The position numbers and the translations under genes were made by a program. Shown here piece by piece: positions 3,479-42,104 of a stretch of 64,000 nt of DNA (position 1 is the stretch's first letter; each line of letters opens with the position of its first letter). Source of the DNA: Reclinomonas americana ATCC 50394 (Eukaryota); NCBI GenBank assembly GCA_048213135.1, contig PS015009.1, forward strand, positions 682,001-746,000, in the 5' to 3' direction. Below the pieces are notes generated by a model that saw nothing but the letters and a program-made list of their open reading frames with translations, was not told the DNA's origin and searched no databases.

Positions 3479-3868
3479 TTAGAGATGGGCGAGGATTTTT
3501 TCCTGTACGGCCTTCAATTCTTCAGAAGTTGCCTTTGATTTATGGCGGGTGAAGTTGAGGTCGTTGGCGGAGTTGATGGGCAGCAGGTGTACGTGGGCAT
3601 GCGGTACTTCCAGTCCCACCACACTTATACCGCAACGCTTGCAATCGAAGGCTTTTTCTATGGCCCTGGCAATAGGTTTGGCAAACACCAGTATACCGGC
3701 CAGGTAATCATCGGGAAGATCAAATACTTTATCCACCTCCGTTTTCGGCACCACCAGCACATGACCAGGCACCAGTGGTTCTATATCAAGAAAAGCGAAA
3801 AAATGCTCATTCTCGGTGATCTTATACGAAGGAATGTCACCGGCGATTATTTTGGAAAAGATGGTCAT
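3479..3868 (-). CDS. HIT family protein
   Basis: HAHVHL histidine triad; TIFSKII N-terminus. Confidence 0.93.
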   Translation of the reverse strand: MTIFSKIIAGDIPSYKITENEHFFAFLDIEPLVPGHVLVVPKTEVDKVFDLPDDYLAGILVFAKPIARAIEKAFDCKRCGISVVGLEVPHAHVHLLPINSANDLNFTRHKSKATSEELKAVQEKILAHL

Positions 3869-3871
3869 ATT

Positions 3872-3981
3872 AATTACGAATTAGGAATTACAAATTACGA
3901 ATTAAATACGCATCCATACATCAGAAAAAAGCATCCCGGTGAGGAGATGCTTACGTCATTCGTAATTCCTAATTCGTAATT
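3872..3981. repeat. Heptamer (AATTACG/AATTAGG) tandem repeats forming a 20-bp inverted repeat around a terminator-like hairpin
   Basis: AATTACGAATTAGGAATTAC (3872-3891) is the exact reverse complement of GTAATTCCTAATTCGTAATT (3962-3981); inner AAGCATC...GATGCTT. Confidence 0.7.
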
Positions 3982-4453
3982 ATAAACCAATATCCTCAAT
4001 TTTAAACTTCAGCACTCCTGCCGGTACCTGCACTTCCACTTCATCGCCTACCAGTTTGCCGAGCAGCCCCTTACCAATGGGTGAAGTAACGGATATCTTG
4101 CCCAGTTTAAGATCGGCCTCTTTTTCAGAAACGATCTGGTAGGTCACCTGTTTTTTTGTATTGAGGTTGGTCAGCGATACTTTGGTGAGGATGCTTACCT
4201 TACTGGTATCGATATTGGTTTCGTCGAGGATACGGGCGGTGGCAATAACGCCTTCCAGGTATTTGATCTTGGCTTCCAGCATACCCTGTGCTTCTTTGGC
4301 AGCATCGTATTCGGCGTTTTCCTTAAGGTCACCTTTTTCCCTTGCTTCGGCAATGGCCTTGCTGGCAGCGGGCCTGTCTACCGAACGCATCACGTGCAGT
4401 TCTTCCTTCATCTTTTCAAAGGTATCCTTGGTTACATAATTGGTCTCGCTCAT
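3980..4453 (-). CDS. greA: Transcription elongation factor GreA
   Basis: GDLKENAEYDAAK and ISVTSPIGKGLLG motifs. Confidence 0.97.
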   Translation of the reverse strand: MSETNYVTKDTFEKMKEELHVMRSVDRPAASKAIAEAREKGDLKENAEYDAAKEAQGMLEAKIKYLEGVIATARILDETNIDTSKVSILTKVSLTNLNTKKQVTYQIVSEKEADLKLGKISVTSPIGKGLLGKLVGDEVEVQVPAGVLKFKIEDIGL

Positions 4454-26320: not shown

Positions 26321-26338
26321 ACCGCAGATACTATTTTG

Positions 26339-26375
26339 AAAGAGCCCTGGCAGAGATGCCGGGGCTCTTTGTTTT
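26339..26375 (+). terminator. Intrinsic terminator of rne/rng; left border of the island
   Basis: AAAGAGCCCTGGCA-GAGA-TGCCGGGGCTCTTT followed by GTTTT. Confidence 0.85.
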
Positions 26376-26440
26376 GCCGGGTTTTTACGGGAATAAAATG
26401 GGTGACTAAAACTTAGCTTGCCCGTACATTCCGGAAAATA

Positions 26441-27310
26441 ATGGAAAATACTGATGTAATAAAAGAGATGAGGAAAATGCTTGTTTTGAAAGGATACAGT
26501 TCAAACACCATTCAGACATACCTTAATGAAATGTCGCAGTTTCTGAAAATAATTAAGGAAGTTCCTGCCAGCAGTTTTTCTGCCGAAAGGATAAAGGATT
26601 ATCTGCAATTCTGCCTGGAGAAGCAGGGGTTAAGTGAAAATACACTTCACAGCCGGATAAATGCACTTAAGTTTTATTATGAACAGGTATTGGGCAGAGA
26701 AAGACTCTTTTGGCAGATACCGCGTCCCAAAAAACCTTTGCTTTTACCAAAATTGCTGAATGAAAAAGAGCTGGCCCGTTTATTCAATGCCCTTACAAAC
26801 AGGAAGCATAAAGCAATGCTTTTTACGGTGTATAGCGCCGGATTGCGTGTCAGTGAACTTGCAGAACTGAAGATCAGCGATATTGACAGTCAACGGATGC
26901 AGATACTGATACGAAAAGCGAAAGGGAAAAAAGACAGGTATGTTAATTTAAGTCCTGTGCTGCTGGATATACTCCGGTCGTACATAAGCGTGTATAAGCC
27001 CCGCCCCCGGTTATACCTGTTTGAATCGGATCAGACCAATACAGCTTATCCAACGAGAACTGTTCAACAAATATTTTCCAATGCCAGACAAAGAGCGGGA
27101 ATTATGAAAGATGTTGGTATCCATAGCCTGAGGCACAGTTTTGCCACCCATCTGCTGGATAAGGGTACAGATATCAGGTACATAAAAGACCTGCTGGGAC
27201 ATTTTGATATCAAGACTACTGAGCGCTATCTCCATGTTTCAAAAAGGCAACTGGTGAATATTACCAGTCCGCTGGATGATCTTATGAATAAAGAGAATCT
27301 TAAATGGTAA
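26441..27310 (+). CDS. Tyrosine recombinase, IntI-related but lacking the integron-integrase insertion
   Basis: Catalytic R (GLR), K (KGKKDR), HSLRH, LLGH, Y (TERY); N-terminal YSSNTIQTY and ALKFYYEQVL, RPKK..LP, C-terminal SPLD. Confidence 0.93.
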   Translation: MENTDVIKEMRKMLVLKGYSSNTIQTYLNEMSQFLKIIKEVPASSFSAERIKDYLQFCLEKQGLSENTLHSRINALKFYYEQVLGRERLFWQIPRPKKPLLLPKLLNEKELARLFNALTNRKHKAMLFTVYSAGLRVSELAELKISDIDSQRMQILIRKAKGKKDRYVNLSPVLLDILRSYISVYKPRPRLYLFESDQTNTAYPTRTVQQIFSNARQRAGIMKDVGIHSLRHSFATHLLDKGTDIRYIKDLLGHFDIKTTERYLHVSKRQLVNITSPLDDLMNKENLKW

Positions 27311-27340
27311 TATCATTGATGCTATAAACAATGCGGTACG

Positions 27341-27427
27341 TATAACACTAAATCAATGATTTTTAAGATGTTAATGTTATAAAATTTAAATTGTAATATC
27401 ATATATTTATGTGTTAAATGCCATTGC
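27341..27427 (+). other. Putative attI-like primary recombination site (crossover G27413|TT)
   Basis: GTTAAATGCCATTGC (27413) matches 13/15 the reverse complement of cassette-1 3' end GCAACGGCATATAAC; no 19-bp hairpin upstream; TATAACA/TGTTATA inverted repeat and AAATCA-A-TGATTT palindrome. Confidence 0.65.
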
Positions 27428-27983
27428 TATCAGACGTTTCAAATAGCGACACTTGTATATCATCGTTACAGTTCAGCATTTCTATTTTAGTTTCACCCTT
27501 ATAGCCACGCTTCATATAATAGACAGCACAAGGAAACCCAAATGGGAAACCAGCTTTGCTTGCAGGGAGTGTATGTATTGAAACAAAACCGCCATAATCA
27601 AAAATCAGATTTAAAGTTCCTAAACTCTTAAACATTTTTGCCACAGGAACAAGTAAAACTATGTTATCAGCCAAAGCAAAAGAGTGTTCTAAAAATCTAT
27701 TGTAATCGCTGTATGGCGGATTTGTTACAATCCAATCTACTTTATCATTATAATCATAGTAGTTTTTACCATCAACAATTTCACACCAGTCTGTATCTTT
27801 TGGCAAATGCTTTAAAAATGCACCCTCACCTTTGCAAGGCTCTAAAACCTTACCATCAATATCAAACATCCCACAAATTTGTTTTGCCAACCAATCAGGA
27901 GTAAAAACAACATCATTTGGGTTTATGTGTGCATACTTCCCAACAATATAAGGGTTATGCTTTTGTCCGTTAATGCTTCCCAT
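27414..27983 (-). CDS. Small amino (probably N6-adenine) DNA methyltransferase (cassette 1, inverted)
   Basis: FTP, VLEPCKGEGAF (motif I), IVTNPPY (motif IV). Confidence 0.85.
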   Translation of the reverse strand: MGSINGQKHNPYIVGKYAHINPNDVVFTPDWLAKQICGMFDIDGKVLEPCKGEGAFLKHLPKDTDWCEIVDGKNYYDYNDKVDWIVTNPPYSDYNRFLEHSFALADNIVLLVPVAKMFKSLGTLNLIFDYGGFVSIHTLPASKAGFPFGFPCAVYYMKRGYKGETKIEMLNCNDDIQVSLFETSDSNGI

Positions 27984-28012
27984 ATTTTTAATTTTGTTTA
28001 ACTAACCGCAAC

Positions 28013-28115
28013 GGCATATAACAGTGGGTTTTCTGCTATACGGGCTGACGGAACATTGCCCAGCTTTCTGTTTTCCAAATTCCCGTACAGCAGAAAGCCC
28101 TGTACGTTGTAGGCA
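28013..28115 (+). repeat. attC-like element E1 (short, 37-nt loop)
   Basis: GGCATATAAC-agt-GGGTTTTCTGCTATACGGG ... CCCGTACAGCAGAAAGCCC-tgtac-GTTGTAGGCA. Confidence 0.85.
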
Positions 28116-28137
28116 ACCTTTTCGACACACTCTAATT

Positions 28138-28605
28138 ATGCAAGTTTTTAAGACAGACAAGAAACTCTTTTGGGCTAACGAACTGAAAAGTTGGTTATGG
28201 ACATTTGCCTTTGCAGCTTTGCTATATTTTGGTTTAAAGTATTATTCCTCGTTGACTAACGACAATATTATTGTTGGCGTCGTTGTTCTTTTGCTTCTTA
28301 AACTTGCAGACACATTGACCCAATACCATGTAAGAGAAATTCAAATTGACGGACAGAGGAAACAAATGACCGTGATACTAAATAGTAGAATGTCTGGTGA
28401 GAAAATAAAAAGATATGAATTAGGGGAAGTGACATCAGAATTAAAAAACAATTCGGGCCTGACAAAATATTTGTCTTCTCCATTTACCCTTAAAATATTT
28501 TTGAAACCAAAAGATGTATTTGTAATAAGCAATAGATATGGCTTTACATTAGACGCATTAACTTCGGTTGACAAAATACTAAAATCATTGAAAGCTCAAG
28601 CATGA
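28138..28605 (+). CDS. Hypothetical 2-TM membrane protein (cassette 2)
   Basis: ATG 28138, two hydrophobic segments; bounded by E1 and E2. Confidence 0.75.
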   Translation: MQVFKTDKKLFWANELKSWLWTFAFAALLYFGLKYYSSLTNDNIIVGVVVLLLLKLADTLTQYHVREIQIDGQRKQMTVILNSRMSGEKIKRYELGEVTSELKNNSGLTKYLSSPFTLKIFLKPKDVFVISNRYGFTLDALTSVDKILKSLKAQA

Positions 28606-28616
28606 CACAATAAGGC

Positions 28617-28822
28617 TGCCTACAACATTGGTATTTGCAAAAGCTGGGCAGACGGAACCCGTGTTTCAACTTTTGTTTTTCAATTTCGCTTCATATCGGG
28701 CAGGACGTTAATAATTTAGCTTTGTGCAAATCATCAACATAAATTTATAAATTTAGATTCAGGTAGCCGAGCTGACGACTATCTATTCCCCAGCCTTCGC
28801 AAATACCTGCTCGTTAGGTGCA
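28617..28822 (+). repeat. attC-like element E2
   Basis: TGCCTACAAC-att-GGTATTTGCAAAAGCTGGG ... CCCAGCCTTCGCAAATACC-tgctc-GTTAGGTGCA. Confidence 0.88.
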
Positions 28823-28873
28823 AGTATAGCGACCACCCCAATAGACAACGACAGCTAAACGAAAGCAAGCCCA

Positions 28874-29467
28874 ATGGAAATAGACAAATCAAAACAACTC
28901 ATTACTACATCTATAAATAAAGACACCGTTTTACTTTTCGATATGGACGGAACTTTGGTTGACACAGATTTTGCAAATTTTTTATCGTATCAAAAAGCGA
29001 TAGAATTAGTAATCGGTCTTGACAAGGAAATTCAATACAATCCTAATGAAAGGTTCAATCGTACAACTTTAAAAACAGTCCTGCCAAATTTGACAGAAAC
29101 TGAGTATGAAAAAATAATCCAGCAAAAAGACAAAAACTACAAAGAGCATTTATCACAAACAAAATTGAATAAACCTGTAGCAGATATTTTGCTACAATAT
29201 TCCAATACAAATAAAACGGTTTTAGTTACAAACTGCCGACAAGACAGAGCATTAATGACATTAAATTATTACAATCTTACAGACAAATTCAGTAACTTAA
29301 TATTCCGACAGATTTCAGACAATGAAAGCCGAATGAATAAATACAAATACGCATTATCAAGTTTGAACCTATCAGCTCAAACAGTTGTAGTTTTTGAAAA
29401 TGAAAAACAAGAAATTGAAGATGCTAAACTTGCAGGTATTTCGATTAATAACATTTTAAGCCTTTAG
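28874..29467 (+). CDS. HAD-superfamily phosphatase (cassette 3, gene 1)
   Basis: LLFDMDGTLVDT motif I, LVTN motif II, VFEN...AKLAG motif IV. Confidence 0.9.
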   Translation: MEIDKSKQLITTSINKDTVLLFDMDGTLVDTDFANFLSYQKAIELVIGLDKEIQYNPNERFNRTTLKTVLPNLTETEYEKIIQQKDKNYKEHLSQTKLNKPVADILLQYSNTNKTVLVTNCRQDRALMTLNYYNLTDKFSNLIFRQISDNESRMNKYKYALSSLNLSAQTVVVFENEKQEIEDAKLAGISINNILSL

Positions 29468-29470
29468 AAT

Positions 29471-30097
29471 ATGACACCTTTCACAATAGTACAAAACAAT
29501 TACTTGACACAGAACATTCAGGGGTTTTATCATACTGATTTCGGTGGCGTAGACCTGCCTAACAATCCAAATTATCTTTATAAGTTAAAAAATGACCCAC
29601 ACCATAATTGGTCAGACTTTAGAATCCAAGAAGCACAACAGCAATTATTGAGAGTACTACTTATTGACCTTCCAGAAATAGTAAGGCAAATCAATGTAAG
29701 TCCTTTAACAGTTTGTGTTGTACCAAGGGCTAAAGCTGATAATACTTATCGTCCCAATCAATTACTATTCAAAGCAACTATTAGAAATGCTGTAAATCAG
29801 TTAGGTAATAGTTTTAGAGACGGAACAAACTTTATTGTACGTCATACAAATACAAAGACTACGCATCTTAGAAAGCCGATGGAAGGCTTTGTAAATGATG
29901 GTGCCGAGCCGTATCCTGGTGTCAGTACTGCTACCTGTAATTTTTCAAGAAATATTAATGGACAAAATATTCTATTGATTGACGATATTTATACAAGAAC
30001 TGTAAACATCGATGAAGATATGATTCAATCATTATTGAATAGTGGGGCAAATTCAGTTACTTTCTATGCAATTGGAAACACTGTTTACAATCACTAA
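29471..30097 (+). CDS. Type I phosphoribosyltransferase, ComF-like (cassette 3, gene 2)
   Basis: VCVVP; ILLIDDIYTR PRPP-binding loop; GANSVTFYAIG. Confidence 0.85.
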   Translation: MTPFTIVQNNYLTQNIQGFYHTDFGGVDLPNNPNYLYKLKNDPHHNWSDFRIQEAQQQLLRVLLIDLPEIVRQINVSPLTVCVVPRAKADNTYRPNQLLFKATIRNAVNQLGNSFRDGTNFIVRHTNTKTTHLRKPMEGFVNDGAEPYPGVSTATCNFSRNINGQNILLIDDIYTRTVNIDEDMIQSLLNSGANSVTFYAIGNTVYNH

Positions 30098-30109
30098 AAC
30101 AAAATTCAA

Positions 30110-31105
30110 ATGAAGTACACAGACAACGCCATCAATATTATTACAGCAAAAACCTACAAGGGAATTGGCAGAGCATGGATTGTAAAAAATTTAAAAGGAA
30201 ATGAAAGTGCTGATACTATTGTTTCCTTATTGAATGGGAACTCAAAGGAAGATTATCTAATCACACTTGATGATTTTGAGTATGAAAAAAATAAAATAAT
30301 CAATCAAATAGAAGCTTTTGGAGAAAGCTGCGATGGAATTGTTGCAATTGGTGACAAGAGTTTTCCAAAGTATAGAGGAAATGTTAAGGAAAGTGAGCGA
30401 CCAATTTTCCTTTTTTATAAAGGCGATATAAATCTATTGGATATTGAAAATCACAACATCACCGTTATTGGACTTCTTAACCCAGACGAAGCCATTGAAA
30501 TTAGAGAAAAAAAAATAGTCGCTGAAATTGTCAATAAAGGTGTGGCAATTGTTAGCGGCTTAGCATTTGGTTGTGATAGTATTGCACACAGACAAGCACT
30601 TATTGGAGGAAAAACAATCGCAGTTCTACCAAGTCCCTTAAACAGTATTATGCCTGCAAAAAATAAAAGTTTAGCATTTGAGATAGTTGAAGATGGCGGA
30701 CTTTTAATTACTGAATATTATGACGAACATAAATCTGCAATGGATTTAAGCAGCCGATACAAAGACCGTGATAGATTGCAAGCATTATTTTGTGATACTA
30801 TTATTTTAGCCGCTAGCTATGCACAAGATTCTGCAACTCGTTGGAAAATTACAGACCAAAAATTGGACAGTGGTGCAAGATTGGCAATGGGATTTGCAAA
30901 AGAATATAATATTCCCCGAGCAGTAATGTATGACCAAAACACTGATTCAAATAATCCAATGTTTGATTTGAATCGACAATTAATTTCAGAACAAAATGTT
31001 ACTATTTTAACTCAAAAAAACTTGCAAGAAATTATCGACAAGATTAAGACTAAAGACACAAGAAGTAACAGCAATATTGCTTATCAAAAAGATTTGTTTA
31101 GCTGA
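30110..31105 (+). CDS. DprA/Smf (SLOG) family protein (cassette 3, gene 3)
   Basis: PIFLFYKGD, IVSGLAFGCDSIAHRQAL, TIAVLP, GLLITEY, RDRLQA, SGA. Confidence 0.9.
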   Translation: MKYTDNAINIITAKTYKGIGRAWIVKNLKGNESADTIVSLLNGNSKEDYLITLDDFEYEKNKIINQIEAFGESCDGIVAIGDKSFPKYRGNVKESERPIFLFYKGDINLLDIENHNITVIGLLNPDEAIEIREKKIVAEIVNKGVAIVSGLAFGCDSIAHRQALIGGKTIAVLPSPLNSIMPAKNKSLAFEIVEDGGLLITEYYDEHKSAMDLSSRYKDRDRLQALFCDTIILAASYAQDSATRWKITDQKLDSGARLAMGFAKEYNIPRAVMYDQNTDSNNPMFDLNRQLISEQNVTILTQKNLQEIIDKIKTKDTRSNSNIAYQKDLFS

Positions 31106-31129
31106 CGAGAGGGCGAGACCAAACACACC

Positions 31130-31333
31130 TGCACCTAACAGGGGGTTTGCCAAAATACGGGCGGACGGAAGTTATCTTCGGCTTTTTGTAATTCTATTGT
31201 GCTTCATATCGGGCTGGACATTATCTATTTAGCTTTTGTTGTTATCTTCATCTTCAGTTTTTCAATCATCATCGGTACCGTGCGGACGGAATACTAATTC
31301 CCGTACTTCGGCAAGCCCTGTCCGTTGGCTGCT
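31130..31333 (+). repeat. attC-like element E3
   Basis: TGCACCTAAC-agg-GGGTTTGCCAAAATACGGG ... CCCGTACTTCGGCAAGCCC-tgtcc-GTTGGCTGCT. Confidence 0.88.
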
Positions 31334-31349
31334 ACTCTAAAGCGACATA

Positions 31350-31901
31350 ATGAAACTTTTTCCATTTCTAAAAAAGAAGGACAACAAAATAGTTTACAAA
31401 TGTTCTTGTTGTGGACAAGAATATAACAGTGTGCCGCTTTGTTTTGGCGGAGACTTTCCAGACTATTATTTTTCTGTCCCACCTGAAGAAAGAAATGAGA
31501 GAATCGAATTACAACCAAGCCTTTGTGTCGTTGACAAAACACATTTTTTTCATCGTGGCAGGTTGACAATTCCTATCATCGACCACACAGAAAATTTAAT
31601 TTTCAACGTTTGGACTTCTATAAGTGAAGACAATTTTGGAATTAGAATGGATTTTTGGGAAGACCCGAAACGAGTTGACCAAGAGCCGTATTTTGGTTGG
31701 TTGCAGACAATTGTACCAACTTATGGCGACACATTAAATATTAAGACAATCGCAATCGAGCAAGAAGTTGGACTAATTCCAAATATTCATGTCATAGAAG
31801 AAAATCATCCGCTAAAGGTTGACCAAGACAATGGAATCACTTATAAAGAAGCATTAAAAAAAGTTGACGAAATATTACGAATGCATCATCAGAAAAATTG
31901 A
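31350..31901 (+). CDS. DUF2199-like protein (cassette 4)
   Basis: YKCSCCGQEY, FFHRGRLTIPI, YFGWL, HPL..DQ.NGIT. Confidence 0.75.
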   Translation: MKLFPFLKKKDNKIVYKCSCCGQEYNSVPLCFGGDFPDYYFSVPPEERNERIELQPSLCVVDKTHFFHRGRLTIPIIDHTENLIFNVWTSISEDNFGIRMDFWEDPKRVDQEPYFGWLQTIVPTYGDTLNIKTIAIEQEVGLIPNIHVIEENHPLKVDQDNGITYKEALKKVDEILRMHHQKN

Positions 31902-31920
31902 CCTCATTATTTGACCGAGC

Positions 31921-32120
31921 AGCAGCCAACATGCGGTTTGCCGCAATGCTGGCAGGCTCAAGAACAATCGGCGGCAAATCATTAATGGACTTCGGTCCCG
32001 GCGTACATTATTCTATTGAGCATTTGTATTAACTTCAGCATAAAATCAATGACCGGGCTTTTGTTTCAGCGGACGGATATAGAATCCTAGCACTGCGGCA
32101 AGCCCTGCCCGTTGGCTGCA
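31921..32120 (+). repeat. attC-like element E4
   Basis: AGCAGCCAAC-atg-CGGTTTGCCGCAATGCTGG ... CTAGCACTGCGGCAAGCCC-tgccc-GTTGGCTGCA. Confidence 0.85.
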
Positions 32121-32154
32121 AGGCGAAACAGTCCATTCAAAATTGAAATCTTAA

Positions 32155-32679
32155 ATGAAAAAGGTAATTCTTAATACGCTTATTTTACTTTCTACTTCAA
32201 CCGCATTTTCTCAGACGGAGAAATTGGAATTAAAGGTTATTGATAGCCTCAATTTCTCGAAGCAGGAACTATATGTTAGAGCGAGGGCATTTATTGCTTA
32301 TAGTTTTAAGAATTCCAAAAATGTTATTCAAATGGACGATAAAGACGCTGGGAAGATAATTTGCAAAGGAAGCATGACACCTGCCAGTAAGGGAACTTTT
32401 GGAATGACGTATCAAAACAATGTGGATTTCACCTTAACAATAGACGTGAGGGACGGTAAGTATAGAGCTCTAATTTCAGAAATATATCATTCAGGCCTTG
32501 GACCTAAGAAAGAATATGCAGGTGGGGCTATTGAAAACGAAAAGCCTGCCTGCGGTACGTTTTTTATTCCCAAAAAGGATTGGGATAAAATGAAAGAGGC
32601 AATAAAGGCAGAAGCATCCGCCTATTTAGACAGTTTAAAGACAGCGATGAATAAAGAAGTGAAAAAAGATGATTTCTAA
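32155..32679 (+). CDS. Exported DUF4468-like protein (cassette 5)
   Basis: Signal peptide; SKQELY..A, VIQMDDKDAGKII, IDVRDGKYR. Confidence 0.7.
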   Translation: MKKVILNTLILLSTSTAFSQTEKLELKVIDSLNFSKQELYVRARAFIAYSFKNSKNVIQMDDKDAGKIICKGSMTPASKGTFGMTYQNNVDFTLTIDVRDGKYRALISEIYHSGLGPKKEYAGGAIENEKPACGTFFIPKKDWDKMKEAIKAEASAYLDSLKTAMNKEVKKDDF

Positions 32680-32692
32680 CTCCTAACTGCCC

Positions 32693-32894
32693 TGCTGCTA
32701 ACATGGGCTTGGCGTAATTGGGGCTTGACGGAAAAACTTTCAGCTTCTGTACACATCCAGGCATTAGCTATGGGCCTGACCGTTTACTTAAAGTCATACG
32801 TTCTATTTAAATATTTCGTTTCTTTATAGCATCAAAGGCCGGGCGGACATAGGGTTAATTCCCCAACTACGCCAAGCCCTCGACGTTAGCTGTA
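32693..32894 (+). repeat. attC-like element E5
   Basis: TGCTGCTAAC-at-GGGCTTGGCGTAATTGGGG ... CCCCAACTACGCCAAGCCC-tcgac-GTTAGCTGTA. Confidence 0.88.
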
Positions 32895-32933
32895 ACCTTG
32901 GAGCGACACTACAAAAAATCAACAACAGACAAA

Positions 32934-33626
32934 ATGAGTATGAAGAAAATAGGATTAATAGGTGGAATTAGTTGGGTTTCGACAATAGATTATTACAAGT
33001 TCATCAACGAAGGAGTAAATACAAAATTGGGTGGACTAAATTTTGCTGAATGTATTATTTACTCTTTAAATTTTGGAGACATACAAGCAAAAAGTTGGGA
33101 CAATTCATTTGAACTACTATTGACCGCATGTGAGAGTTTGAAAAAAAGTGGTGTGGACAGTATAGTTTTGTGTGCTAATACTGCACATCTTTTTGCAGAC
33201 AAGCTTCAAGAAACAATCAATTTGCCAATTATTCATATTGGAGTAGAAACTGCAAAAGCTGTTAATAAACAAGGATATAAAAAAGTAGGACTGCTAGGAA
33301 CAAAATTCACAATGGAAATGGACTTCTACAGAAATAAACTTGAAGAGTATGGGCTTGAGGTTTTGATACCACAAAAACAAGAGACAAGAGATTACATTCA
33401 ACACACTATAAAAGAAGAATTAGGTATAGGATTTACTAATCCAGAGACAAAGAAAAACTACATTTCAATTGTAAAAGAATTGGTTGAGAATGGAGCTGAG
33501 TGTATTATTTTAGGTTGTACAGAAATACCAATGTTAATAAGTCAAGACGATTTTTCAACACCAATTTTTGACACGACAAAAATTCATTCACAAGCCATCA
33601 TTGAATATATTGTCTCAGAGAATTGA
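32934..33626 (+). CDS. Aspartate/glutamate racemase, RacX/YgeA-like (cassette 6)
   Basis: IGLIGGISW, CANTAH, LLGT, ILGCTEIP. Confidence 0.93.
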   Translation: MSMKKIGLIGGISWVSTIDYYKFINEGVNTKLGGLNFAECIIYSLNFGDIQAKSWDNSFELLLTACESLKKSGVDSIVLCANTAHLFADKLQETINLPIIHIGVETAKAVNKQGYKKVGLLGTKFTMEMDFYRNKLEEYGLEVLIPQKQETRDYIQHTIKEELGIGFTNPETKKNYISIVKELVENGAECIILGCTEIPMLISQDDFSTPIFDTTKIHSQAIIEYIVSEN

Positions 33627-33652
33627 GACAATATTAGACAGAAAAGAAAGGT

Positions 33653-33855
33653 AGCAGCCAACATGGGGTTTTCTGCTATGCTGGCTGAAGAATATATACT
33701 GATCATCCCATTCGCTTATCAGCTGTAGTTCGGGCTGAACGGAGAAACCCCAGCAACAGAATATAACATCAACTGCATTAAATTTACTCAGCAACAGTTC
33801 GGGCTGACGAATAACGGAATATCAGCACAGCAGAAAGCCCTGGCCGTTCGCGGCA
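33653..33855 (+). repeat. attC-like element E6
   Basis: AGCAGCCAAC-atg-GGGTTTTCTGCTATGCTGG ... TCAGCACAGCAGAAAGCCC-tggcc-GTTCGCGGCA. Confidence 0.87.
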
Positions 33856-34438: not shown

Positions 34439-34475
34439 AGCCGCTAACATTGGTATTGCCCGCTGGTGGCAAGCA
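34439..34475 (+). repeat. Truncated attC-like element E7 (left end only)
   Basis: AGCCGCTAAC-att-GGTATTGCC, similar to the E2 left end; no right arm or GTT core seen. Confidence 0.6.
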
Positions 34476-34514: not shown

Positions 34515-35069
34515 ATGAAAAAATCAATTTTGATATTAATCAGTCTTTTCAATATACTTATTAGTCAGGCGAGACAAACCGAATCAGATGTTAAAACATT
34601 AAAAGCTGACATAAACGCTAATGGACAAGTCGATGTAATAAAACCAGGCACGAATGCTCTTTCACTGAGCATTGACAATAAAAGCTATACTATTTCATAT
34701 GGTCTTTTAGGTTTTGAATCTTTATCTGAATTAAATTTTACAAATAATATTCTAACAATATCTGGATATAACAGCGGAACCGGTGCTTATAGCTGGGTTT
34801 ATAAATTCAGAAATAATAAATTAACTAAAAAAATAGAACTGATTGGATATGACGATTTCAATAAATGGGTTTCAGGAAATATTACAACAAGTATAAATAC
34901 CATAACAAATAAGTATAAAGTGATATTGGAAGAATATAACCATGCTAAACAGGAAATGGAAACTACAAAACATACAGGAAAAATTTCAATCAGGAGAATT
35001 GGGCTGACAGACATTAAGAAAGAAGACGTAGATAAACTTACTGGAATTGGCATGAAATACTGGAAGTAA
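34515..35069 (+). CDS. Hypothetical exported protein
   Basis: ATG 34515, MKKSILILISLF signal-like N-terminus; AT-rich like the cassettes. Confidence 0.7.
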   Translation: MKKSILILISLFNILISQARQTESDVKTLKADINANGQVDVIKPGTNALSLSIDNKSYTISYGLLGFESLSELNFTNNILTISGYNSGTGAYSWVYKFRNNKLTKKIELIGYDDFNKWVSGNITTSINTITNKYKVILEEYNHAKQEMETTKHTGKISIRRIGLTDIKKEDVDKLTGIGMKYWK

Positions 35070-35579: not shown

Positions 35580-36110
35580 TCAGAGTTTTACACTCACCCT
35601 AAAAGTTTTGGCATCTGTTGCCTCCAGCCATAACAGCGCCCTTTTTCCGTTCTCCATCTGAACGAGAAAACAATGGTACTTAATCCCTGCAGCCAGGTCA
35701 TCTGTTATGGAGGCGAAATGCACAAAAGAGTTTTTAGTCAGGTAGCCTGTCATTCTTTGCAGGTCCTGGCTGGTATTGCATTTGTCAAACTGGTCTTTAT
35801 CGAAGCTCAGGGTGCTGATAACAGAGGCTGTGCCTCTCAGGTCAACAGGGATCTTTTCGTCCTTTCCGCTCATATTGTACCACTCCGCCACCTGCTTTTT
35901 ATCATTCTGGGTTATGATCAGGGCCAGGTCCACGCTTGATTTATTGTTCTTCGCCTCTTCAGTTGTAAATACTTTTTTCTGTGATATACCCAGGTAACTG
36001 TTGGCGCCAACCCGGGGGTTCAGGGTAGCGGTAAAACTGGTCAGTTTTTGCGCCAAGCCCGGCAAAACGGTCATTATGCTTAAAAAAGTAACTACAATTG
36101 ATTTCAACAT
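35580..36110 (-). CDS. Hypothetical exported protein
   Basis: 176-aa ORF with a signal-like N-terminus. Confidence 0.65.
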   Translation of the reverse strand: MLKSIVVTFLSIMTVLPGLAQKLTSFTATLNPRVGANSYLGISQKKVFTTEEAKNNKSSVDLALIITQNDKKQVAEWYNMSGKDEKIPVDLRGTASVISTLSFDKDQFDKCNTSQDLQRMTGYLTKNSFVHFASITDDLAAGIKYHCFLVQMENGKRALLWLEATDAKTFRVSVKL

Positions 36111-36293
36111 GATGATTTGATTTTTTAGGATGCAATTTAATATTCATTAAAGTAAATTGCAATATTTTAAATTACTTTAGGGTTAGGCTCTTCTGGCAAT
36201 TTTGATATGCCTGTCAGCACCGGCGCCAGCTTCACGCGATGATATTTTTCGTATTTTCAGTCGGCATCACCTGCAACAATAAAACATGACCAT

Positions 36294-36863
36294 ATGAGAA
36301 AAATAATTTCCTTCATGCATATATCCCTCAATGGCTTTGTAGCCGGCCCGAATGGTGAAATGGACTGGATCATCATCAATGAGGAGCTCTTCGATCATGT
36401 TGGTAAACGGATAAGCAAAGGCGACACGGCCTTATACGGACGGGTAACTTATGATATGATGGAAAGCTACTGGCCAACCGCGGGAGACAAACCCACTGCA
36501 AGTAAACACGATATTGAACACTCCAGGTGGTACAGCCAAGTCCACAAAGTGGTATTATCAAAAACCATGAAAGACACAGACCTGGCCAACACCACCATCA
36601 TCAGCGACAATCTTCCGGGCGAATTAAATAAAATAACACAGCAGCCGGGCGAAGACATCCTGCTTTTTGGCAGCCCTACGGCAACACATGCACTCATACA
36701 GCTGGGACTGATCGACGGCTACTGGCTGTTCGTTAACCCGGTTATTCTCGGGCAGGGCATTCCATTATTTACAGGCATCAAAGACAAAGTAAAACTGAAA
36801 CTGCTGACCACCCACCAATTTGCGTGCGGGGTAACTGAACTGAATTATACCGTAGTAAGATAA
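36294..36863 (+). CDS. Dihydrofolate reductase / RibD C-terminal family protein
   Basis: SLNGFVAGPNG, YGRVTY, GLID, PVILGQGIPLF. Confidence 0.9.
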   Translation: MRKIISFMHISLNGFVAGPNGEMDWIIINEELFDHVGKRISKGDTALYGRVTYDMMESYWPTAGDKPTASKHDIEHSRWYSQVHKVVLSKTMKDTDLANTTIISDNLPGELNKITQQPGEDILLFGSPTATHALIQLGLIDGYWLFVNPVILGQGIPLFTGIKDKVKLKLLTTHQFACGVTELNYTVVR

Positions 36864-36934
36864 AACGAACACCGATATTGGCTTTTCTCAATAACCTGCC
36901 CATGAAAACTGAGCACCCCTAATTTTAAAGCCAT

Positions 36935-37366
36935 ATGAATACAAAAGCACAGATCAAACAGTATATTGACAGCCAGCCTGAACCCAAACGCGGCGACATG
37001 CAAAACCTGCATGGCATCATCCAGGAAATAATGCCTGCAGGTGAACTTTGGTTTCTCGATGGCAAAGACAGCAACAATAAAACCGTTTCCAACCCCAACA
37101 TAGGGTACGGGCGCTACACCATACAATACGCAGGCGGAAAAACCAGGGAGTTTTACCAGGTTGGCATGAGTGCCAACACAACCGGTATATCTGTCTATAT
37201 CCTTGGCATCGACGATAAAACCTACCTGGCCCAAACCTATGGCAAAAAACTGGGCAAGGCCAGTGTTACGGGGTATTGTATTAAGTTCAAAGCGCTGAAA
37301 GATATAAATGTTGATGTACTGAAAGAAGCCATCCTCTACGGGGTTAAAAACTCGCTCCGAAACTAA
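36935..37366 (+). CDS. DUF1801 (YdhG-like) protein
   Basis: YIDS, IGYG.Y, LGK....CIKFK.L.D. Confidence 0.75.
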   Translation: MNTKAQIKQYIDSQPEPKRGDMQNLHGIIQEIMPAGELWFLDGKDSNNKTVSNPNIGYGRYTIQYAGGKTREFYQVGMSANTTGISVYILGIDDKTYLAQTYGKKLGKASVTGYCIKFKALKDINVDVLKEAILYGVKNSLRN

Positions 37367-37513
37367 TATTACAACCAGCACTGGAAATAATATCCGGCTG
37401 ACAATAGCCATTTTCCCGTTCCTCTTCACAAATGGTATTTGTTACACCTCCGTGCCAGTGGGTATTTCCCTGTTATGCCCCGCCCCCTACATTTACCGCA
37501 CTAAAAATCAATC

Positions 37514-38410
37514 ATGAACTTTCGATTCCTTTTAACCCTGGTATTGGCCGCATGTTCCATCAGCCTGTCCGCACAATCGTCCCTTACGCAAAAGTTTCGC
37601 AAAAATGTGCCGGTGCAAATGACGTACTATGAAAGGTTATACGACGCCAACAACACCCGCACCTCCAAAAACAAACTGAAAAAGACCAAAGAGTTCACCG
37701 ACAGTGAAGTAGAAGAAATATTCACCCGTCTCGGCATCGATTCGGAGATTCCCTCAAAACTCAATAACCAGGACAGGGAAGCACTGCAACATTACGTGGT
37801 GTATGAGATCTCCGATTTTTCTTTAATGGGATATAAATTCTCATTGATCTGGATACCCTATGACGAAAATAAACACATGCCCAAAAACATGCAGCCACCC
37901 ACAAAAGACGGCACCATCTTCTATACTTATACCAAGCACCTTTCCTTTAATGGTAAAGATGCTTCCGGCAATCTTCTTGCCAAAGCAGGCACACCACTTT
38001 CCGCGCCGGAACCCATAAACGTGAGTGTTGCCGACATGAGCCAGTTCCTCAATGGTGGAAAAGAGAAAATGAAAGACATACCACAGGTATTCAAAGCCGG
38101 CGCCGATCCGCAACTCGTAAAACAGGGCGAGGCTGATTATTATGCCATGCAGTCCCGCTTCCCGAATATTTCAAAAGAGTACACCCAGTTCAGGGATAAG
38201 GTATTCGCACAGGTACTGGAAGACAGGAAGACCGGCACCCAGGCCAACCTCTTCATGAAAAAAGAAAGAGAGGGCGGACAAAAATTGCTCGATGAGTGGC
38301 ATTCCAAAATCGACGCCTTCCTCAAAAAGTACAGTGCCATCATCACTCCCGAAGCTGAAGCCGAAATAAGTGGCTGGCACAACCAGGCACTGCATTATAT
38401 CGATTATTAA
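37514..38410 (+). CDS. Hypothetical exported protein
   Basis: 298-aa ORF with a signal peptide. Confidence 0.7.
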   Translation: MNFRFLLTLVLAACSISLSAQSSLTQKFRKNVPVQMTYYERLYDANNTRTSKNKLKKTKEFTDSEVEEIFTRLGIDSEIPSKLNNQDREALQHYVVYEISDFSLMGYKFSLIWIPYDENKHMPKNMQPPTKDGTIFYTYTKHLSFNGKDASGNLLAKAGTPLSAPEPINVSVADMSQFLNGGKEKMKDIPQVFKAGADPQLVKQGEADYYAMQSRFPNISKEYTQFRDKVFAQVLEDRKTGTQANLFMKKEREGGQKLLDEWHSKIDAFLKKYSAIITPEAEAEISGWHNQALHYIDY

Positions 38411-38411
38411 A

Positions 38412-38441
38412 CTGTCATCCCCGGCGAAGCGAGGTATCTCT
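38412..38441 (+). repeat. REP-like dispersed intergenic repeat
   Basis: TGTCATCCCCGGCGAAGCGAGGTATCT resembles the reverse complement of 63295-63320 (TGTCATACCGAGGTAACGAGGTATCT). Confidence 0.55.
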
Positions 38442-38701
38442 CTGGTGCAAATTATTCCGGGGGCTTTCTGCTCCCATACTCCCATCATCACCTGCAGGCG
38501 CTATCCGTTGCAACCTGCGCTGCGCTGCGGTTTTCACTGCTATCGCCCAGCCTGTGAGCGGTTGTGCGTTATTCAGCAATTTCCAATGAAATAACGCGGC
38601 ATAAGGAAACCGGACAGCCTTACTATATTATCTGGTTTTGTAACTTTATCTGGCGCCTAAACTGATTTTTTACGCTTATAGCTAAACTTAAATAAACAGC
38701 A

Positions 38702-39430
38702 GTGCACCTATCAAATGAAATACAAAAACGCCTCGTCAAGCTTACATCAACTATAAAATTAGCTTCAACAATTGATGGTACATTTCCTGGTGAATACTCC
38801 TTTTGCCATATGCCGGGAAGAAGTTTCAGGACAGAGTTCGCATCAACGAACCAGGAGTTTTCACTGGTTCTTTATGAACGAACTGATCAGCAGACCTACG
38901 AGAATTGCTATGCGAGAGGTTTATTTACCGATCTTGACAGGCTCGCAACCGTTATCCACTTCTGGGTTGACAAACAAAAAGATATTTCAGAAATCAAAAG
39001 TAATTTTGACGAGCTCAAATTGTATTCAGACTTTGATACCAGAAATCCGAATCCGGATATCGACAAAGCATGGACAAAAGTCAGGAATATGTTCTTTAAT
39101 GATACAGGGTTCTGGAAGCAAACTGAATGGGAGGGACGGTATTTGAATATGCTGAATGAAGCAAAACGTCATAAAGCTTTTGAAAACTATTTCCCATTCA
39201 CAAGCCATTATTGGTTAAGATTCAGCATTGACAAATACATCAGGGAAACATGGACACTCAGCACTTATATTATTCCGACGATGTACAGTGATGAAGTTCC
39301 GGATACACTTGGGAAGTTTTATGTTTCATTCAGCGACGAACCAAGGGGTGGGCAGTTCTTTGAAACAGTAAAGGAAGCGCTTGACTTCTATGCCGCTAAA
39401 TTAAAAGAAACCAGTCCAACAAAATGGTGA
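38702..39430 (+). CDS. Hypothetical protein (DUF6193-like motif)
   Basis: YFPFTSHYWLRFS motif; AT-rich. Confidence 0.55.
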   Translation: MHLSNEIQKRLVKLTSTIKLASTIDGTFPGEYSFCHMPGRSFRTEFASTNQEFSLVLYERTDQQTYENCYARGLFTDLDRLATVIHFWVDKQKDISEIKSNFDELKLYSDFDTRNPNPDIDKAWTKVRNMFFNDTGFWKQTEWEGRYLNMLNEAKRHKAFENYFPFTSHYWLRFSIDKYIRETWTLSTYIIPTMYSDEVPDTLGKFYVSFSDEPRGGQFFETVKEALDFYAAKLKETSPTKW

Positions 39431-39454
39431 CAATAAAAAACCAACACGTGTAAG

Positions 39455-39958
39455 GTGAAATACAGAACTATCGCACTTTTAATATTGATCTTCAATATTG
39501 CTGTAGTAGGTTTACTTTTGCTTGACAGCTTTCTCCCTCCAGGCAAAGGCAGGCCCGCTTTAGTAGACGACAAAAGAATTGAAAGAAGTGCCGGAAAAGT
39601 CGGGTCAAGGGGCCACTCCACTTTTTTTATACTGGATGAAAGGGGCACAAAATATAAAGTACCTGATGATGAATTCGAAAGATATTCACCAGGGGATTCA
39701 TTCTATGTGTTTCGGTCAGTGTTCTTTGGAAAAGCTATAAGAATTAAACCGGTGAAGCCAGAGCACAACGAGGTACTCAATATCGGAGTGATCAACTCAT
39801 CGGTATTCGGTTTGCTCATTTGCCTGGCTACCATTGCCATCTCGGTAGTTCTTTTATATAAGGTAATAATAAAGAATATTACCAGTTATCGAGCCAGCCT
39901 GTTTACAATCTGGCTAACGATAATAATTATTGCTTTTTACATGATATTTCAGTCATAA
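39455..39958 (+). CDS. Hypothetical membrane protein
   Basis: Three hydrophobic segments. Confidence 0.65.
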   Translation: MKYRTIALLILIFNIAVVGLLLLDSFLPPGKGRPALVDDKRIERSAGKVGSRGHSTFFILDERGTKYKVPDDEFERYSPGDSFYVFRSVFFGKAIRIKPVKPEHNEVLNIGVINSSVFGLLICLATIAISVVLLYKVIIKNITSYRASLFTIWLTIIIIAFYMIFQS

Positions 39959-40035
39959 TCATATTGGTTTTTCGGGAAAACCTCCACTTTCTATGATATA
40001 AAGCGGTCAAATTATATAAAGCTAAATCCTTCCTC

Positions 40036-40623
40036 ATGGGGCTTGACAGTATAGAATTATTAATGGAAATAGAGAATTACTTCAATATCCGTGTCCCGGA
40101 TGCTGAAGCAGAGAAAATATATACCGTGCAGTCGATGGTAGATTCCGTCGCAGCTCATTTACACATATCCGAAAATTCATTTACACTCCGGGACGATATA
40201 TTCAGAAAGATTGCAGATGCCCTGCCCGCCAGTAGTGAAATAAAATCCGGAATACTGCTATCCTCTTCTGTAGAAGATTATATCAGTTTTGATAATAGAG
40301 CTTTGTGGAAAGCACTTGAAGCAAGCATAGGGCTCAAAGTGCCTGCACCTGATTACAAATGGGCATTTTCATCAAACCTTAATGAGAGACTTTTGAAAAT
40401 ACTCCATTCCCGTCCAAAAAAGGAAAAAGAAATAATCACCTTTGAACAGCTTACGGCTGCCATATGCTCCTGCAACTACAGCAAACTGATTGACAGAACA
40501 AACATTAAAACCCTGTACGAAATATATGTAGTTGTTGCTGGTATTACTTGTGATAAAATAGGTGAAGATATTTACAACATTACACCAGACAAGTCTTTTA
40601 CAAATGACCTTGGGGTAGATTAA
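40036..40623 (+). CDS. Acyl-carrier-protein-like domain protein
   Basis: MGLDSIELLMEIENYFNIRVPDAEAEKI at the N-terminus; SFTNDLGVD at the C-terminus. Confidence 0.7.
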   Translation: MGLDSIELLMEIENYFNIRVPDAEAEKIYTVQSMVDSVAAHLHISENSFTLRDDIFRKIADALPASSEIKSGILLSSSVEDYISFDNRALWKALEASIGLKVPAPDYKWAFSSNLNERLLKILHSRPKKEKEIITFEQLTAAICSCNYSKLIDRTNIKTLYEIYVVVAGITCDKIGEDIYNITPDKSFTNDLGVD

Positions 40624-40685
40624 AGAGATTACAGTATGGCTTACACTGTTGAAATTATGACTACCTTACCAGAAATTAGTCTTTA

Positions 40686-41123
40686 ATGAGAGTTGCGCTT
40701 TTATTTATGTTGCTTCTGTTCCTGGCTCCTTCCTCCAAAGCCCAACTGCTGAAAGGACAATGGGAAGGATACTTTACCGATAATGGCATAAAATACCCAA
40801 TGATACTGGAGTTTATTCTTAATGCCGATACCACCTACAGCGTATTCAGCTACTCTCAAAACCTGGGCATCCCCTTCCTTCCTAAAAAAGACAGCGCCTA
40901 TGTTTGTAAGGTGTCGTACCAATTTACACCGCCAGACGAGGTTTACCTGGAAGAGATTGAGGTCGTGTCCCCATCCAGCGCCACACAGGATTGTTTTCAG
41001 AAAATGAATCTTAAGATCGTTCAACAAGATGGCAAACTGATGCTGACCGGCAAATGGAAAACCAACTCCGGGCGCTGCCATTCATCCGGGAAAGTAACAT
41101 TTACTAAAATAAACGACGGTTAA
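40686..41123 (+). CDS. Hypothetical exported protein
   Basis: Signal peptide; GQWEG and LTGKW beta-rich motifs. Confidence 0.65.
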   Translation: MRVALLFMLLLFLAPSSKAQLLKGQWEGYFTDNGIKYPMILEFILNADTTYSVFSYSQNLGIPFLPKKDSAYVCKVSYQFTPPDEVYLEEIEVVSPSSATQDCFQKMNLKIVQQDGKLMLTGKWKTNSGRCHSSGKVTFTKINDG

Positions 41124-41133
41124 AAAAAATATC

Positions 41134-41481
41134 ATGGCTTACGATATTCAGCTTGCTGACAAGCTAAGAGCATACCTCGCCGGCTTCCCCCGATTGAAGA
41201 TTGAAGAGAAGAAAATGTTCAGCGGACTGGCGTTTCTGGTGAATGGCAAAATGTGTGTTAACGTAAGCAACAACAACCTGATGTGCCGCTTCAACCCTGC
41301 TCTACAGGAAGAGGTATCGGAACACCATGCCTTTGAACCCATGATCATGAAAGGTAAACAGCTGCAGGGTTATTGCTACGTAAGACCCGAAGGTTTTAAA
41401 TCAAAAAAGGATTTTGAGTACTGGGTAAATCTTTGCCTGGCGTATAATAAAGATGCTCAATCATCTAAAAAGAAAAAATAA
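41134..41481 (+). CDS. TfoX N-terminal domain protein
   Basis: EEKKMFSGLAFLVNGKM. Confidence 0.85.
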   Translation: MAYDIQLADKLRAYLAGFPRLKIEEKKMFSGLAFLVNGKMCVNVSNNNLMCRFNPALQEEVSEHHAFEPMIMKGKQLQGYCYVRPEGFKSKKDFEYWVNLCLAYNKDAQSSKKKK

Positions 41482-41504
41482 ACACCCAACTATATCAGTC
41501 ACTG

Positions 41505-42104
41505 GTGAAAAGTAAGTCAGGCCGGTGGAAACCGGTAATAAAAAGGATACTCCTGTTCCTGCTTCTGTTTGCGGGAGGAGTGGTAGTGTTTTTATTCTTA
41601 AGCAGTCCTGTTACTAATAATGTTGACAGCTACATATACAATCTTCCATTTGAGAAAGGTACCAGCCACAGGGTGGTACAGGGTTATGGCGGCCTCTTTT
41701 CCCATAAGAATATCGCTGCGCTTGATTTCAGCATGCCGGAAGGCACGCCGGTTTATGCGGCCAGGGAAGGAACAGTCTATAGCTACAAAGACAATAGTGC
41801 CGGAGGCGGGCCTTTACCCAAGTATGAGAAAAACGCCAACTACATTATCGTCAAGCACCCGGACGGCAGCTTTGGTTGTTACTGGCATTTACAAAAAGAT
41901 GGTGTAGTCGTCAAAAACGGAACGGTTAAAAAAGGTCAGTTGATCGGGTACAGCGGTAGCACCGGCTTCGTACTCAGTCCGCATCTTCACTTTTCTGTCA
42001 AGCGAAAACTGAACTACGATAAAGATGCCTTCGTAAAAACAAAATTCTCCACCACGGATGGCATACAACTCCTGGAATTCGGAAAAACCTACCAACACCC
42101 CTGA
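41505..42104 (+). CDS. M23 family peptidase
   Basis: H....ALDF, YWHL, SGSTG...PHLHF. Confidence 0.9.
   Translation: MKSKSGRWKPVIKRILLFLLLFAGGVVVFLFLSSPVTNNVDSYIYNLPFEKGTSHRVVQGYGGLFSHKNIAALDFSMPEGTPVYAAREGTVYSYKDNSAGGGPLPKYEKNANYIIVKHPDGSFGCYWHLQKDGVVVKNGTVKKGQLIGYSGSTGFVLSPHLHFSVKRKLNYDKDAFVKTKFSTTDGIQLLEFGKTYQHP

Follow-up and report, generated by a model that had tools for sequence, protein, structure and literature searches.

The 64,000-nucleotide (nt) stretch of DNA analysed here (the window: positions 682,001 to 746,000 of the forward strand of contig PS015009.1, assembly GCA_048213135.1, deposited under Reclinomonas americana ATCC 50394) contains a tyrosine recombinase gene that is followed by an attI-like site, by seven cassettes reaching from the GTT of that site to approximately 34.4 kb, and finally by an orphan half-site (E7) and one open reading frame (ORF). 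Six long hairpins (E1 to E6) are found in this array, which belongs to a Chitinophagaceae-type bacterium. We consider it probable that the six hairpins are attC-like recombination sites of an integron-like cassette platform, in which the half-sites are marked by a mismatch. The features are collected in Table 1; all coordinates are positions within the window.

Table 1. Features of the cassette array in the window (for hairpins: arms, loop length, position of the A.C mismatch and E value with covariance model R1)
Feature	Position	Strand	Arms	Loop	A.C	R1 E value	Remarks
Tyrosine recombinase gene	26441..27310	+					289 amino acids; Pfam Phage_integrase E = 7.5e-36
attI-like site	27311..27415	+					about 105 nt after the recombinase stop, ends at crossover GTT 27413-27415; 15-locus alignment
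Cassette 0	27414..28106	+					sole ORF 27414-27983 on the - strand, 189 amino acids, function unknown
E1	28014..28114	+	28026-28044 / 28082-28100	37 nt	28038/28088	5.4e-11	
Cassette 1 ends	28106-28120 / 28612-28626						the two ends pair as a 15-bp stem; A 28116 opposite C 28616
E2	28618..28821	+	28630-28648 / 28789-28807	140 nt	28642/28795	1.4e-11	
Cassette 2 cargo	28874..31105	+					HAD hydrolase, ShosT-like, ShosA-like; Pfam HAD_2, DNA_processg_A
E3	31131..31332	+	31143-31161 / 31300-31318	138 nt	31155/31306	8.1e-13	
E4	31922..32119	+	31934-31952 / 32087-32105	134 nt	31946/32093	6.2e-6	
E5	32694..32893	+	32705-32723 / 32861-32879	137 nt	32717/32867	4.5e-13	
E6	33654..33854	+	33666-33684 / 33822-33840	137 nt	33678/33828		missed by R1 at E ≤ 1
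E7, orphan left half-site	34440..34470	+					R'' and left arm; followed by a 184-amino-acid ORF (34515-35069)

An earlier note on this DNA had described six hairpins with 19-bp arms that differ between copies and nevertheless pair with their own partners, and all six were found where it had placed them. Cognate arms pair at 17-18 of the 19 positions (Watson-Crick and G.T pairs counted), compared with 8-17 for non-cognate arms, and compensatory changes are present at 11 of the 19 arm positions within these six hairpins alone. The A.C mismatch that was said to be invariant at the seventh pair from the loop (arm position 13 when counted from the base) is present in every one of them, and so is the asymmetry of the spacers, with 3 nt after AAC (2 nt in E5) and 5 nt before GTT in 6/6. 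Likewise, E1, E3, E4 and E6 have a T.G at arm position 4, the 16th pair when counted from the loop, and none of the six hairpins contains a bulged base. Two irregularities were absent from that description, namely an extra A.C at arm position 10 in E2 and E3 and a C.C as the first pair of E4. A brute-force search of the whole window, in which 19-nt inverted repeats qualified when 16 or more of their pairs were Watson-Crick, returned five of the six hairpins and five unrelated places.

Relatives of the recombinase number thousands, with approximately 75% identity in Chitinophagaceae. We took 79 loci from Bacteroidota genomes, and a geometric scan of these revealed the same hairpin type downstream of the recombinase gene in many loci, with loop classes of about 72 and 137 nt. 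A covariance model (R1) was built from 29 sites of the 72-nt loop class, none of them from the window. The RNAalifold consensus fold of 29 sites contained 13 stem pairs, 12 of which showed compensatory changes, as well as an invariant A and an invariant C that were unpaired; no pairs were predicted by this fold in the loop of the 72-nt class. In the window R1 identified five of the six hairpins and no other site; the E values of the five range from 4.5e-13 to 6e-6, and every one is on the + strand. The arms of E6, the hairpin that was missed, are almost the same as those of a relative's site that scores 45 bits (L006:11333-11533); when R1 was run with its filters off only the left half of E6 was recovered, at 6.8 bits, and long-loop sites score badly that way.

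In 944,518 bases of related loci R1 identified 84 sites at E ≤ 0.01, of which 75 are located downstream of and co-oriented with the recombinase gene, in 37 of 80 sources. The loci span Chitinophagaceae, Cytophagales and Bacteroidales, and the sites cluster as one-directional arrays, some of them adjoining a recombinase gene and some standing alone. In the 84 sites 88.1% of the stem cells are paired, compared with 56.0% in shuffles, and cells with a double change number 396 versus 138 ± 7.5 in shuffles (a value reached in 0 of 500) and 35-83 in slid registers. Together with the compensatory changes at 12 of the 13 consensus pairs, this bears out the proposal of the earlier note that selection acts on a folded structure.

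Several observations were made on the variety of these sites. The loop length classes of about 37, 72 and 137 nt seem to correspond to one, two or three copies of a motif that begins with GGGC.GAC and recurs with a spacing of about 60-65 nt, the first copy overlapping the end of the left arm (consensus of 23 long sites; e.g. 31162-31299). One locus (L029:5335-6768) has the classical, divergent layout, with its sites upstream of the gene for the recombinase and on the strand opposite to it, whereas sites elsewhere are co-oriented. A low-scoring sub-family was found in L035, L048, L033, L076 and L053 (e.g. L035:18004-18139), beside distant recombinases (41-43% identity); three of its members have an extra T bulge in the right arm and the mismatch in another register, and L035:18004 and the member in L048 are also off the standard register. 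One genome (OW818663.1) carries at least 7 copies of the recombinase of this sub-family.

The mismatch position proved to be conserved in a larger alignment, so that one of the refuting conditions named in the earlier note does not apply. Leaving aside 2 of the 84 sites, which have gaps at the anchor columns, A.C is present at position 13 in 72 of 82, and the other 10 have T.A (6), A.T (2) or A.A (2). The arms pair without gaps in 63 of the 82 sites, which together have 54 distinct left arms, and 58 of these 63 have the A.C at position 13. Other mismatches occur in the ungapped sites as well, namely A.C (20) and T.C (5) at position 10, A.C at position 8 (9) and T.G at position 4 (22). Their polarity is nearly constant, with the A or T on the 5' arm; C.A was encountered in only 3 cells in all. 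The spacers of the 63 sites are lopsided too: the 3' side is always longer, with lengths of (2,6) in 18 sites, (2,5) in 18 and (3,5) in 15.

The array shares the organization of integron cassettes. An attI-like site lies beside the recombinase gene, its conservation among 15 aligned loci ending at the GTT of 27413-27415, and cassettes are inserted at this GTT. At the cassette boundaries there are an inverse core (..AAC) and a core (GTT..), with an R'' that is complementary to the start of its own cassette, and the hairpins are imperfect, each comprising R and L boxes as well as a central spacer that is unpaired. In the window the nine bases from GTT are the reverse complement of the nine bases that end in the next AAC for E1-E2, E2-E3 and E3-E4. 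Taking the window and the related loci together, 30 of 42 pairs of successive sites have an R' and a following R'' that are complementary at every one of the 6 variable bases. In the count to which the two controls belong the figure is 29 of 41, compared with 1 of 72 for the R' and R'' of one site and 73 of 2000 for random pairs; the imperfect pairs mostly stretch across long gaps, where a site may be missed. The R'' of the first cassette was compared by eye with the attI junction in 11 loci: complementarity is perfect in 8, extends to 8 of 9 bases in two (L006 and the window, with E1) and is absent in L021. That the ends of one cassette pair with each other is a hallmark of integron cassettes.

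A second, similar mismatch was found where the two ends of a cassette pair. For 30 cassettes with a perfect 9-bp R box, the R stem formed by the two ends is 15 bp long, with position 10 paired in 16 of 30 and the strands unpaired from position 16 on. Position 11 is paired in none of the 30; the R' side, where the GTT is, has an A in all of them, and the opposite base is C (21 cassettes), G (5) or A (4). Beyond it, positions 12-15 are paired in 25, 24, 20 and 23 cassettes, i.e. 92 of 120 cells, compared with 42.8 ± 5.2 cells in shuffles (maximum 61 in 1000). Over all sites an A is present at position 11 after GTT in 66 of 73. In the window this twin mismatch is seen in cassette 1 (Table 1), and also in cassette 2 (28823/31129) and cassette 3 (31334/31920). 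Arm positions 3-5 read GTT in E1, E3, E4 and E6, and the mispaired A of the L stem is the 11th base from that G. On these grounds the two presumed half-sites may be equivalent, each having a GTT, seven bases, a mispaired A and then 4-6 pairs.

These counts bear on the possibility that the fixed mismatch is a neutral relic of one ancestral site, which we consider highly improbable. Loop sequence and the length classes are common within a lineage, which does point to common descent, but a relic would hardly have been kept in 58 of 63 sites while the left arms diverged into 54 distinct sequences with compensatory change at most positions. Moreover, the mismatch recurs independently at position 11 of the R stem, where the flanking pairs are specific to each cassette, and it spans loci from Chitinophagaceae to Cytophagales and Bacteroidales.

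Public assemblies contain variants of the array. Parts of the window are present in 20 runs of 12 studies, and we compared the contigs of four runs (X1, X2, X18 and X4); these data are contigs, not reads, and window parts without contig cover were not counted as absent. Two contigs from separate studies, one of 1819 nt in X1 and one of 2830 nt in X2, agree with 26400-27415 apart from 3 and 4 differences, respectively (at least 99.6% identity); the agreement ends with 27415, where the attI GTT has its last T, and unlike sequence follows. Three contigs of X1 and two of X4 depart from the window immediately past 28815, which is the final T of the E2 GTT, and contigs of X2 and X4 join it at 31137, the first A of the E3 AAC, and at 28622/28623. 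The summed depth at hairpin cores is 39-171, versus 4-12 in unique parts (X2 and X4), and therefore many copies with differing flanks must be present. In X4 the Shosta-like cassette described below is found at about 99% identity; its recombinase gene is almost without contig cover, from which no absence is inferred. The contigs show alternative arrangements and not ongoing excision. Joints in contigs that might have been taken for excision (among them 28810 to 31143, 28685 to 31313 and several skips within loops) were rejected, as they have a short side of 20-47 letters at 90% likeness and joints of this sort often arise from repeats.

The exactness of these breakpoints also matters for a role of the hairpins as RNA, e.g. 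as terminators or processing sites between genes, which is the least probable of the explanations that we considered. The hairpins do lie between co-oriented genes and on the sense strand, as such elements would. Such a role cannot account for the complementarity of the cassette ends or for strain differences that break exactly at GTT, however, and none of the six is terminator-like or has a T tract, no Rfam match was found at E ≤ 0.1, and the fixed mismatch weakens the fold of the sense strand.

The catalytic residues of the recombinase encoded at 26441-27310 are readable in its sequence. Judged by the curated NCBIfam models it does not belong to the Xer chromosome-dimer resolvases, since it scores below every cut-off (XerA_Arch 211 bits, cut-off 220; XerC 177, cut-off 335; XerD 171, cut-off 330), and the integron integrase model TIGR02249 gives 188 bits (cut-off 265) with a match that is split in two stretches. 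The best solved relative is archaeal XerA (4a8e, E = 8e-39). In the alignment with VchIntIA (PDB 2a3v) residues 9-187 of the query correspond to residues 8-186 and residues 196-279 to residues 234-318, which leaves residues of about 187-233 of VchIntIA, the IntI-specific insertion, without a counterpart. The two-part match with TIGR02249 and the gap in the 2a3v alignment thus both indicate that the IntI-specific segment is absent, and by sequence the protein is related to Xer and IntI and is without the IntI-specific additional domain (the I2 helix region).

Relatives of this recombinase are longer. They are proteins of 354-565 amino acids with an N-terminal extension; ahead of the matched core the frame stays open for another 40 to about 280 codons in 31 of 35 loci, and an RWS..T...W motif is conserved there. 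The window recombinase begins right at the core domain, with an interval of 120 nt (26321-26441) between it and the RNase G gene before it, and has no such extension. An AlphaFold model of the N-terminal domain of the relatives has a predicted local distance difference test (pLDDT) value above 90 for residues 1-87, and its best Foldseek match is the HARP domain of SMARCAL1 (4o66), which is weak (E = 0.2, template-modelling (TM) scores 0.29/0.48); Pfam matches to HARP and DUF5710 stay under their cut-offs. We regard the apparent likeness of the modelled domain to HARP as a lead only. Residues H, I, W-S and W are invariant in the extension of the array-linked relatives (L006:9623-9982 together with 20 further loci).

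It could be argued that the hairpins are ordinary attC sites, either in a group of clustered attC sites without any integron integrase (CALIN) or in a degenerate integron, that they are served by a canonical IntI encoded elsewhere, and that the neighbouring recombinase is unrelated and the mismatch a quirk of the lineage. The core motifs, the cassette logic and the site lengths indeed resemble those of sedentary chromosomal integrons, and some arrays in relatives have no adjacent recombinase. We nevertheless find this very unlikely, as no IntI hit above the TIGR02249 cut-off was present in any of the five array-bearing genomes (the strongest matches break at model positions of about 181/238), 75 of the 84 sites directly follow a gene of this recombinase family, separated from it by a conserved attI, and extrahelical bases are missing from all six sites in the window.

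The two strands of the sites do not fold equally well. Calculated with energy parameters for DNA, folding favours the bottom strand in 44 of the 63 ungapped sites, neither strand in 1 and the top strand in 18, the mean advantage of the bottom strand being 1.8 kcal/mol (p = 1.7e-5). An A.C on the top strand usually corresponds to a G.T on the other, which probably makes the bottom strand the better folder. Its mispaired T is located on the R''-L'' arm, the same arm that carries the extrahelical G and T in classical sites. The earlier note had suggested that the mismatch replaces the extrahelical bases that set strand choice, and this remains plausible from the sequences: the idea is supported by the absence of the IntI segment, by the mispaired T being on the same arm as the classical bases, and by the presence of a twin in the other half-site.

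An unlikely but not negligible alternative keeps the sites as we describe them and makes the A.C thermodynamic in nature, not read by the enzyme, with the lopsided spacer setting strand polarity. The A.C would then weaken the hairpin of the top DNA strand, the hairpin of the sense RNA and the extrusion of a cruciform, while the bottom strand keeps a G.T. The greater stability of the bottom strand in 44 of 63 sites is as expected from this, and so is the recurrence of the same polarity elsewhere in the stem (20 of 63 sites have A.C at position 10 and 9 of 63 at position 8, whereas only 3 cells in all have C.A); in every site the 3' spacer exceeds the 5' one, and excerpts of PMC2727003 state that classical sites depend critically on how the central spacer is shaped and oriented. 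What it leaves unexplained is why one position is fixed while the neighbouring pairs vary freely. It also sits badly with the R stem, where the A faces G or A in 9 of 30 cassettes and is thus mismatched on both strands, and with the T.G at position 4 (22 of 63 sites), which acts oppositely, being an A.C on the bottom strand.

The mechanism that we propose for attC-like sites with mismatch-marked half-sites is as follows. The platform would consist, in this order, of the recombinase gene, the attI-like site and the cassettes, each beginning at the TT of GTT and ending with a hairpin. A site would be read as folded single-stranded DNA, most likely the bottom strand, in which two recombinase half-sites, the R stem and the L stem, flank a lopsided and partly unpaired central spacer. 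Each half-site would carry one non-Watson-Crick base, A in the top strand and T in the bottom strand, as the 11th from the G of GTT. This mispaired base could be the weak point that the enzyme opens or reads, and it might set register and polarity in the way that flipped-out bases do.

Several observations weigh against this mechanism or against parts of it. Ten of the 82 sites do not have the A.C at position 13, mostly members of the low-scoring sub-family in a different register, and 19 of the 82 are off the ungapped register, mostly by a one-base bulge in either arm, with most of them keeping the A.C; a bulge-free stem is therefore not a requirement of the family. Duplicates are present among the 30 cassettes used for the R stem (two pairs in L011 and one common to L037 and L056), and consequently that count overstates their independence. 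The equivalence of the half-sites needs positions 3-5 of the L arm to correspond to the GTT of R'; these L-arm positions read GTT in only 4 of the 6 sites of the window, and position 4 varies across the family. The bottom strand is not the better one everywhere, since in 18 of the 63 sites it is the top strand that folds better, and the strands differ little on average; moreover, the spacer asymmetry of 2-3 versus 5-6 nt marks the strands by itself. The recombinase of the window, a short form of 289 amino acids without the domain that nearly all array-linked relatives have, may not be the active enzyme; near-identical copies of this short form in runs X1 and X2 precede first cassettes that differ. 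Finally, folding, binding, strand use and the crossover point are all things that we infer.

The system shares much with classical integrons (class 1 and the Vibrio type with its VCR sites and the integrase of 2a3v): a tyrosine recombinase gene beside attI and a one-directional row of cassettes, which start at the TT of GTT, end in an imperfect inverted repeat (...AAC / GTT...) and have an R'' that pairs with the GTT at their own start, a partly unpaired central spacer, homogeneous loop lengths per lineage and defence genes among the cargo. It differs from them in having a recombinase without the IntI-specific insertion, sites without extrahelical bases that have one fixed non-Watson-Crick base per stem instead, an R stem of 15 bp and not of about 7, and a recombinase gene that is co-oriented with the array and, in the relatives, encodes an enzyme with an extra N-terminal domain. 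The array thus works like an integron and yet lacks two features by which integrons are defined, the IntI additional domain (188 versus 265 bits; residues 187-233 of 2a3v skipped) and the 2-3 extrahelical bases on the R''-L'' arm (none in the six hairpins; 63 of 82 sites ungapped).

Two systems come close in other respects. The 'inverted' integrons of the Treponema denticola type have intI on the same strand as the cassettes, with attI past the 3' end of the gene. The window has the same arrangement, with recombinase gene and cassettes on one strand and attI after the gene. The IntI of the Treponema denticola type keeps the additional domain, however, and its attC sites are of the classical kind. 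Integration of the phage CTX-phi by XerCD proceeds through an attP hairpin of folded single-stranded DNA that imitates a core site with two arms. The two systems have in common a recombinase of the Xer type in which the IntI insertion is missing, and a single-stranded DNA hairpin whose centre is unpaired. CTX-phi has a single attachment site that recombines with the chromosomal dif by means of housekeeping enzymes of the host, and it is not known to have a cassette array or an attI beside a recombinase gene.

With respect to the literature, excerpts of PMC2727003 describe a conserved extrahelical G in L'' of classical attC and a T located 6-8 nt further, both on the R''-L'' arm; there the extrahelical bases are gripped by the IntI-specific segment, flipped-out bases on one arm choose the strand, and the VCR spacer is given as 5 nt per arm, in contrast to the 2-3 versus 5-6 nt found here. 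Hairpin recombination by IntI is ascribed to the gain of the I2 helix in PMC7790495, and archaeal integrons retain the IntI insertion according to sections of 10.1101/2022.02.06.479319. The corresponding sections on IntegronFinder 2.0 (PMC9024848) list Salinibacter ruber as the only complete integron in Bacteroidetes proper, others being in Chlorobi and Ignavibacteriae. Within published full texts (supplements and subscription journals being outside the scope) we found no account of this system or of the mismatch signature.

The cassettes have a G+C content of 0.35-0.38, compared with 0.46-0.50 in the flanks, and in 6 of the 7 the genes are on the + strand. Their cargo encodes an unknown protein, a HAD/ShosT/ShosA trio, a DUF2199 protein, a DUF4468 protein, an Asp/Glu racemase and a DinB-like protein. 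Cassette 2 is predicted to be a Shosta-type anti-phage system with three genes in one cassette; PADLOC recognized in it a ShosT-like phosphoribosyltransferase (E = 6.9e-8) and a ShosA-like DprA-family protein (E = 2.1e-43). The ORF of cassette 0 (27414-27983) runs opposite to the genes of all other cassettes, and it has weak methyltransferase-like matches (Pfam N6_Mtase, E = 0.01; PADLOC MTase_II, E = 4e-4).

The orphan half-site E7 has T instead of A at arm position 13 and reaches 8.6 bits (E = 0.3) under R1 with the filters off. The possibility that it is a site with a gene in its loop was examined and rejected, because a search for a right arm gave none: within 2.5 kb nothing complements its arm at more than 15 of 19 positions, and that best match is more than 900 nt off. 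E7 is either a decayed terminal site or the relic of a gene-in-loop arrangement. Past the array, at 36000-42000, a second stretch of lowered G+C (0.42-0.44) with genes on both strands could be accessory DNA, and at 3867-3986 an A+T-rich region contains long, near-perfect inverted and shifted repeats (arms of at least 19 nt with 100% complementarity) that are unrelated to the array. The GC skew of the window is small and mixed, and no direction of replication was concluded from it.

The relation between the array and the recombinase family leads to a wider and more tentative reading, which we hold to be possible without favouring it: the Bacteroidota may have a second kind of integron, with a Xer-like recombinase that lost or never acquired the I2 segment and recombines folded single-stranded hairpins, reading an openable, mispaired T (A on the sense strand) at the far end of each half-site in place of flipped-out bases on one arm. 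The N-terminal domain of the relatives, if it is HARP-like (a kind that binds junctions of single- and double-stranded DNA), may help in this. In this widespread system the cassette logic exists without the I2 helix and without flipped-out bases, with a simple, fixed and mutable sequence signature in their place, which raises the questions of what a tyrosine recombinase minimally needs in order to use a folded strand and of how strand polarity is encoded. For annotation it means that these platforms will escape integron finders for which the IntI domain is obligatory, and this in Bacteroidota, a group that is nearly devoid of integrons according to the sections of PMC9024848 mentioned above. 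The platforms carry defence cargo, for instance the Shosta-like cassette of the window. If the second kind of integron is real, the I2 helix, which counts in the literature as the key innovation, would not be needed for recombination of hairpins by tyrosine recombinases.

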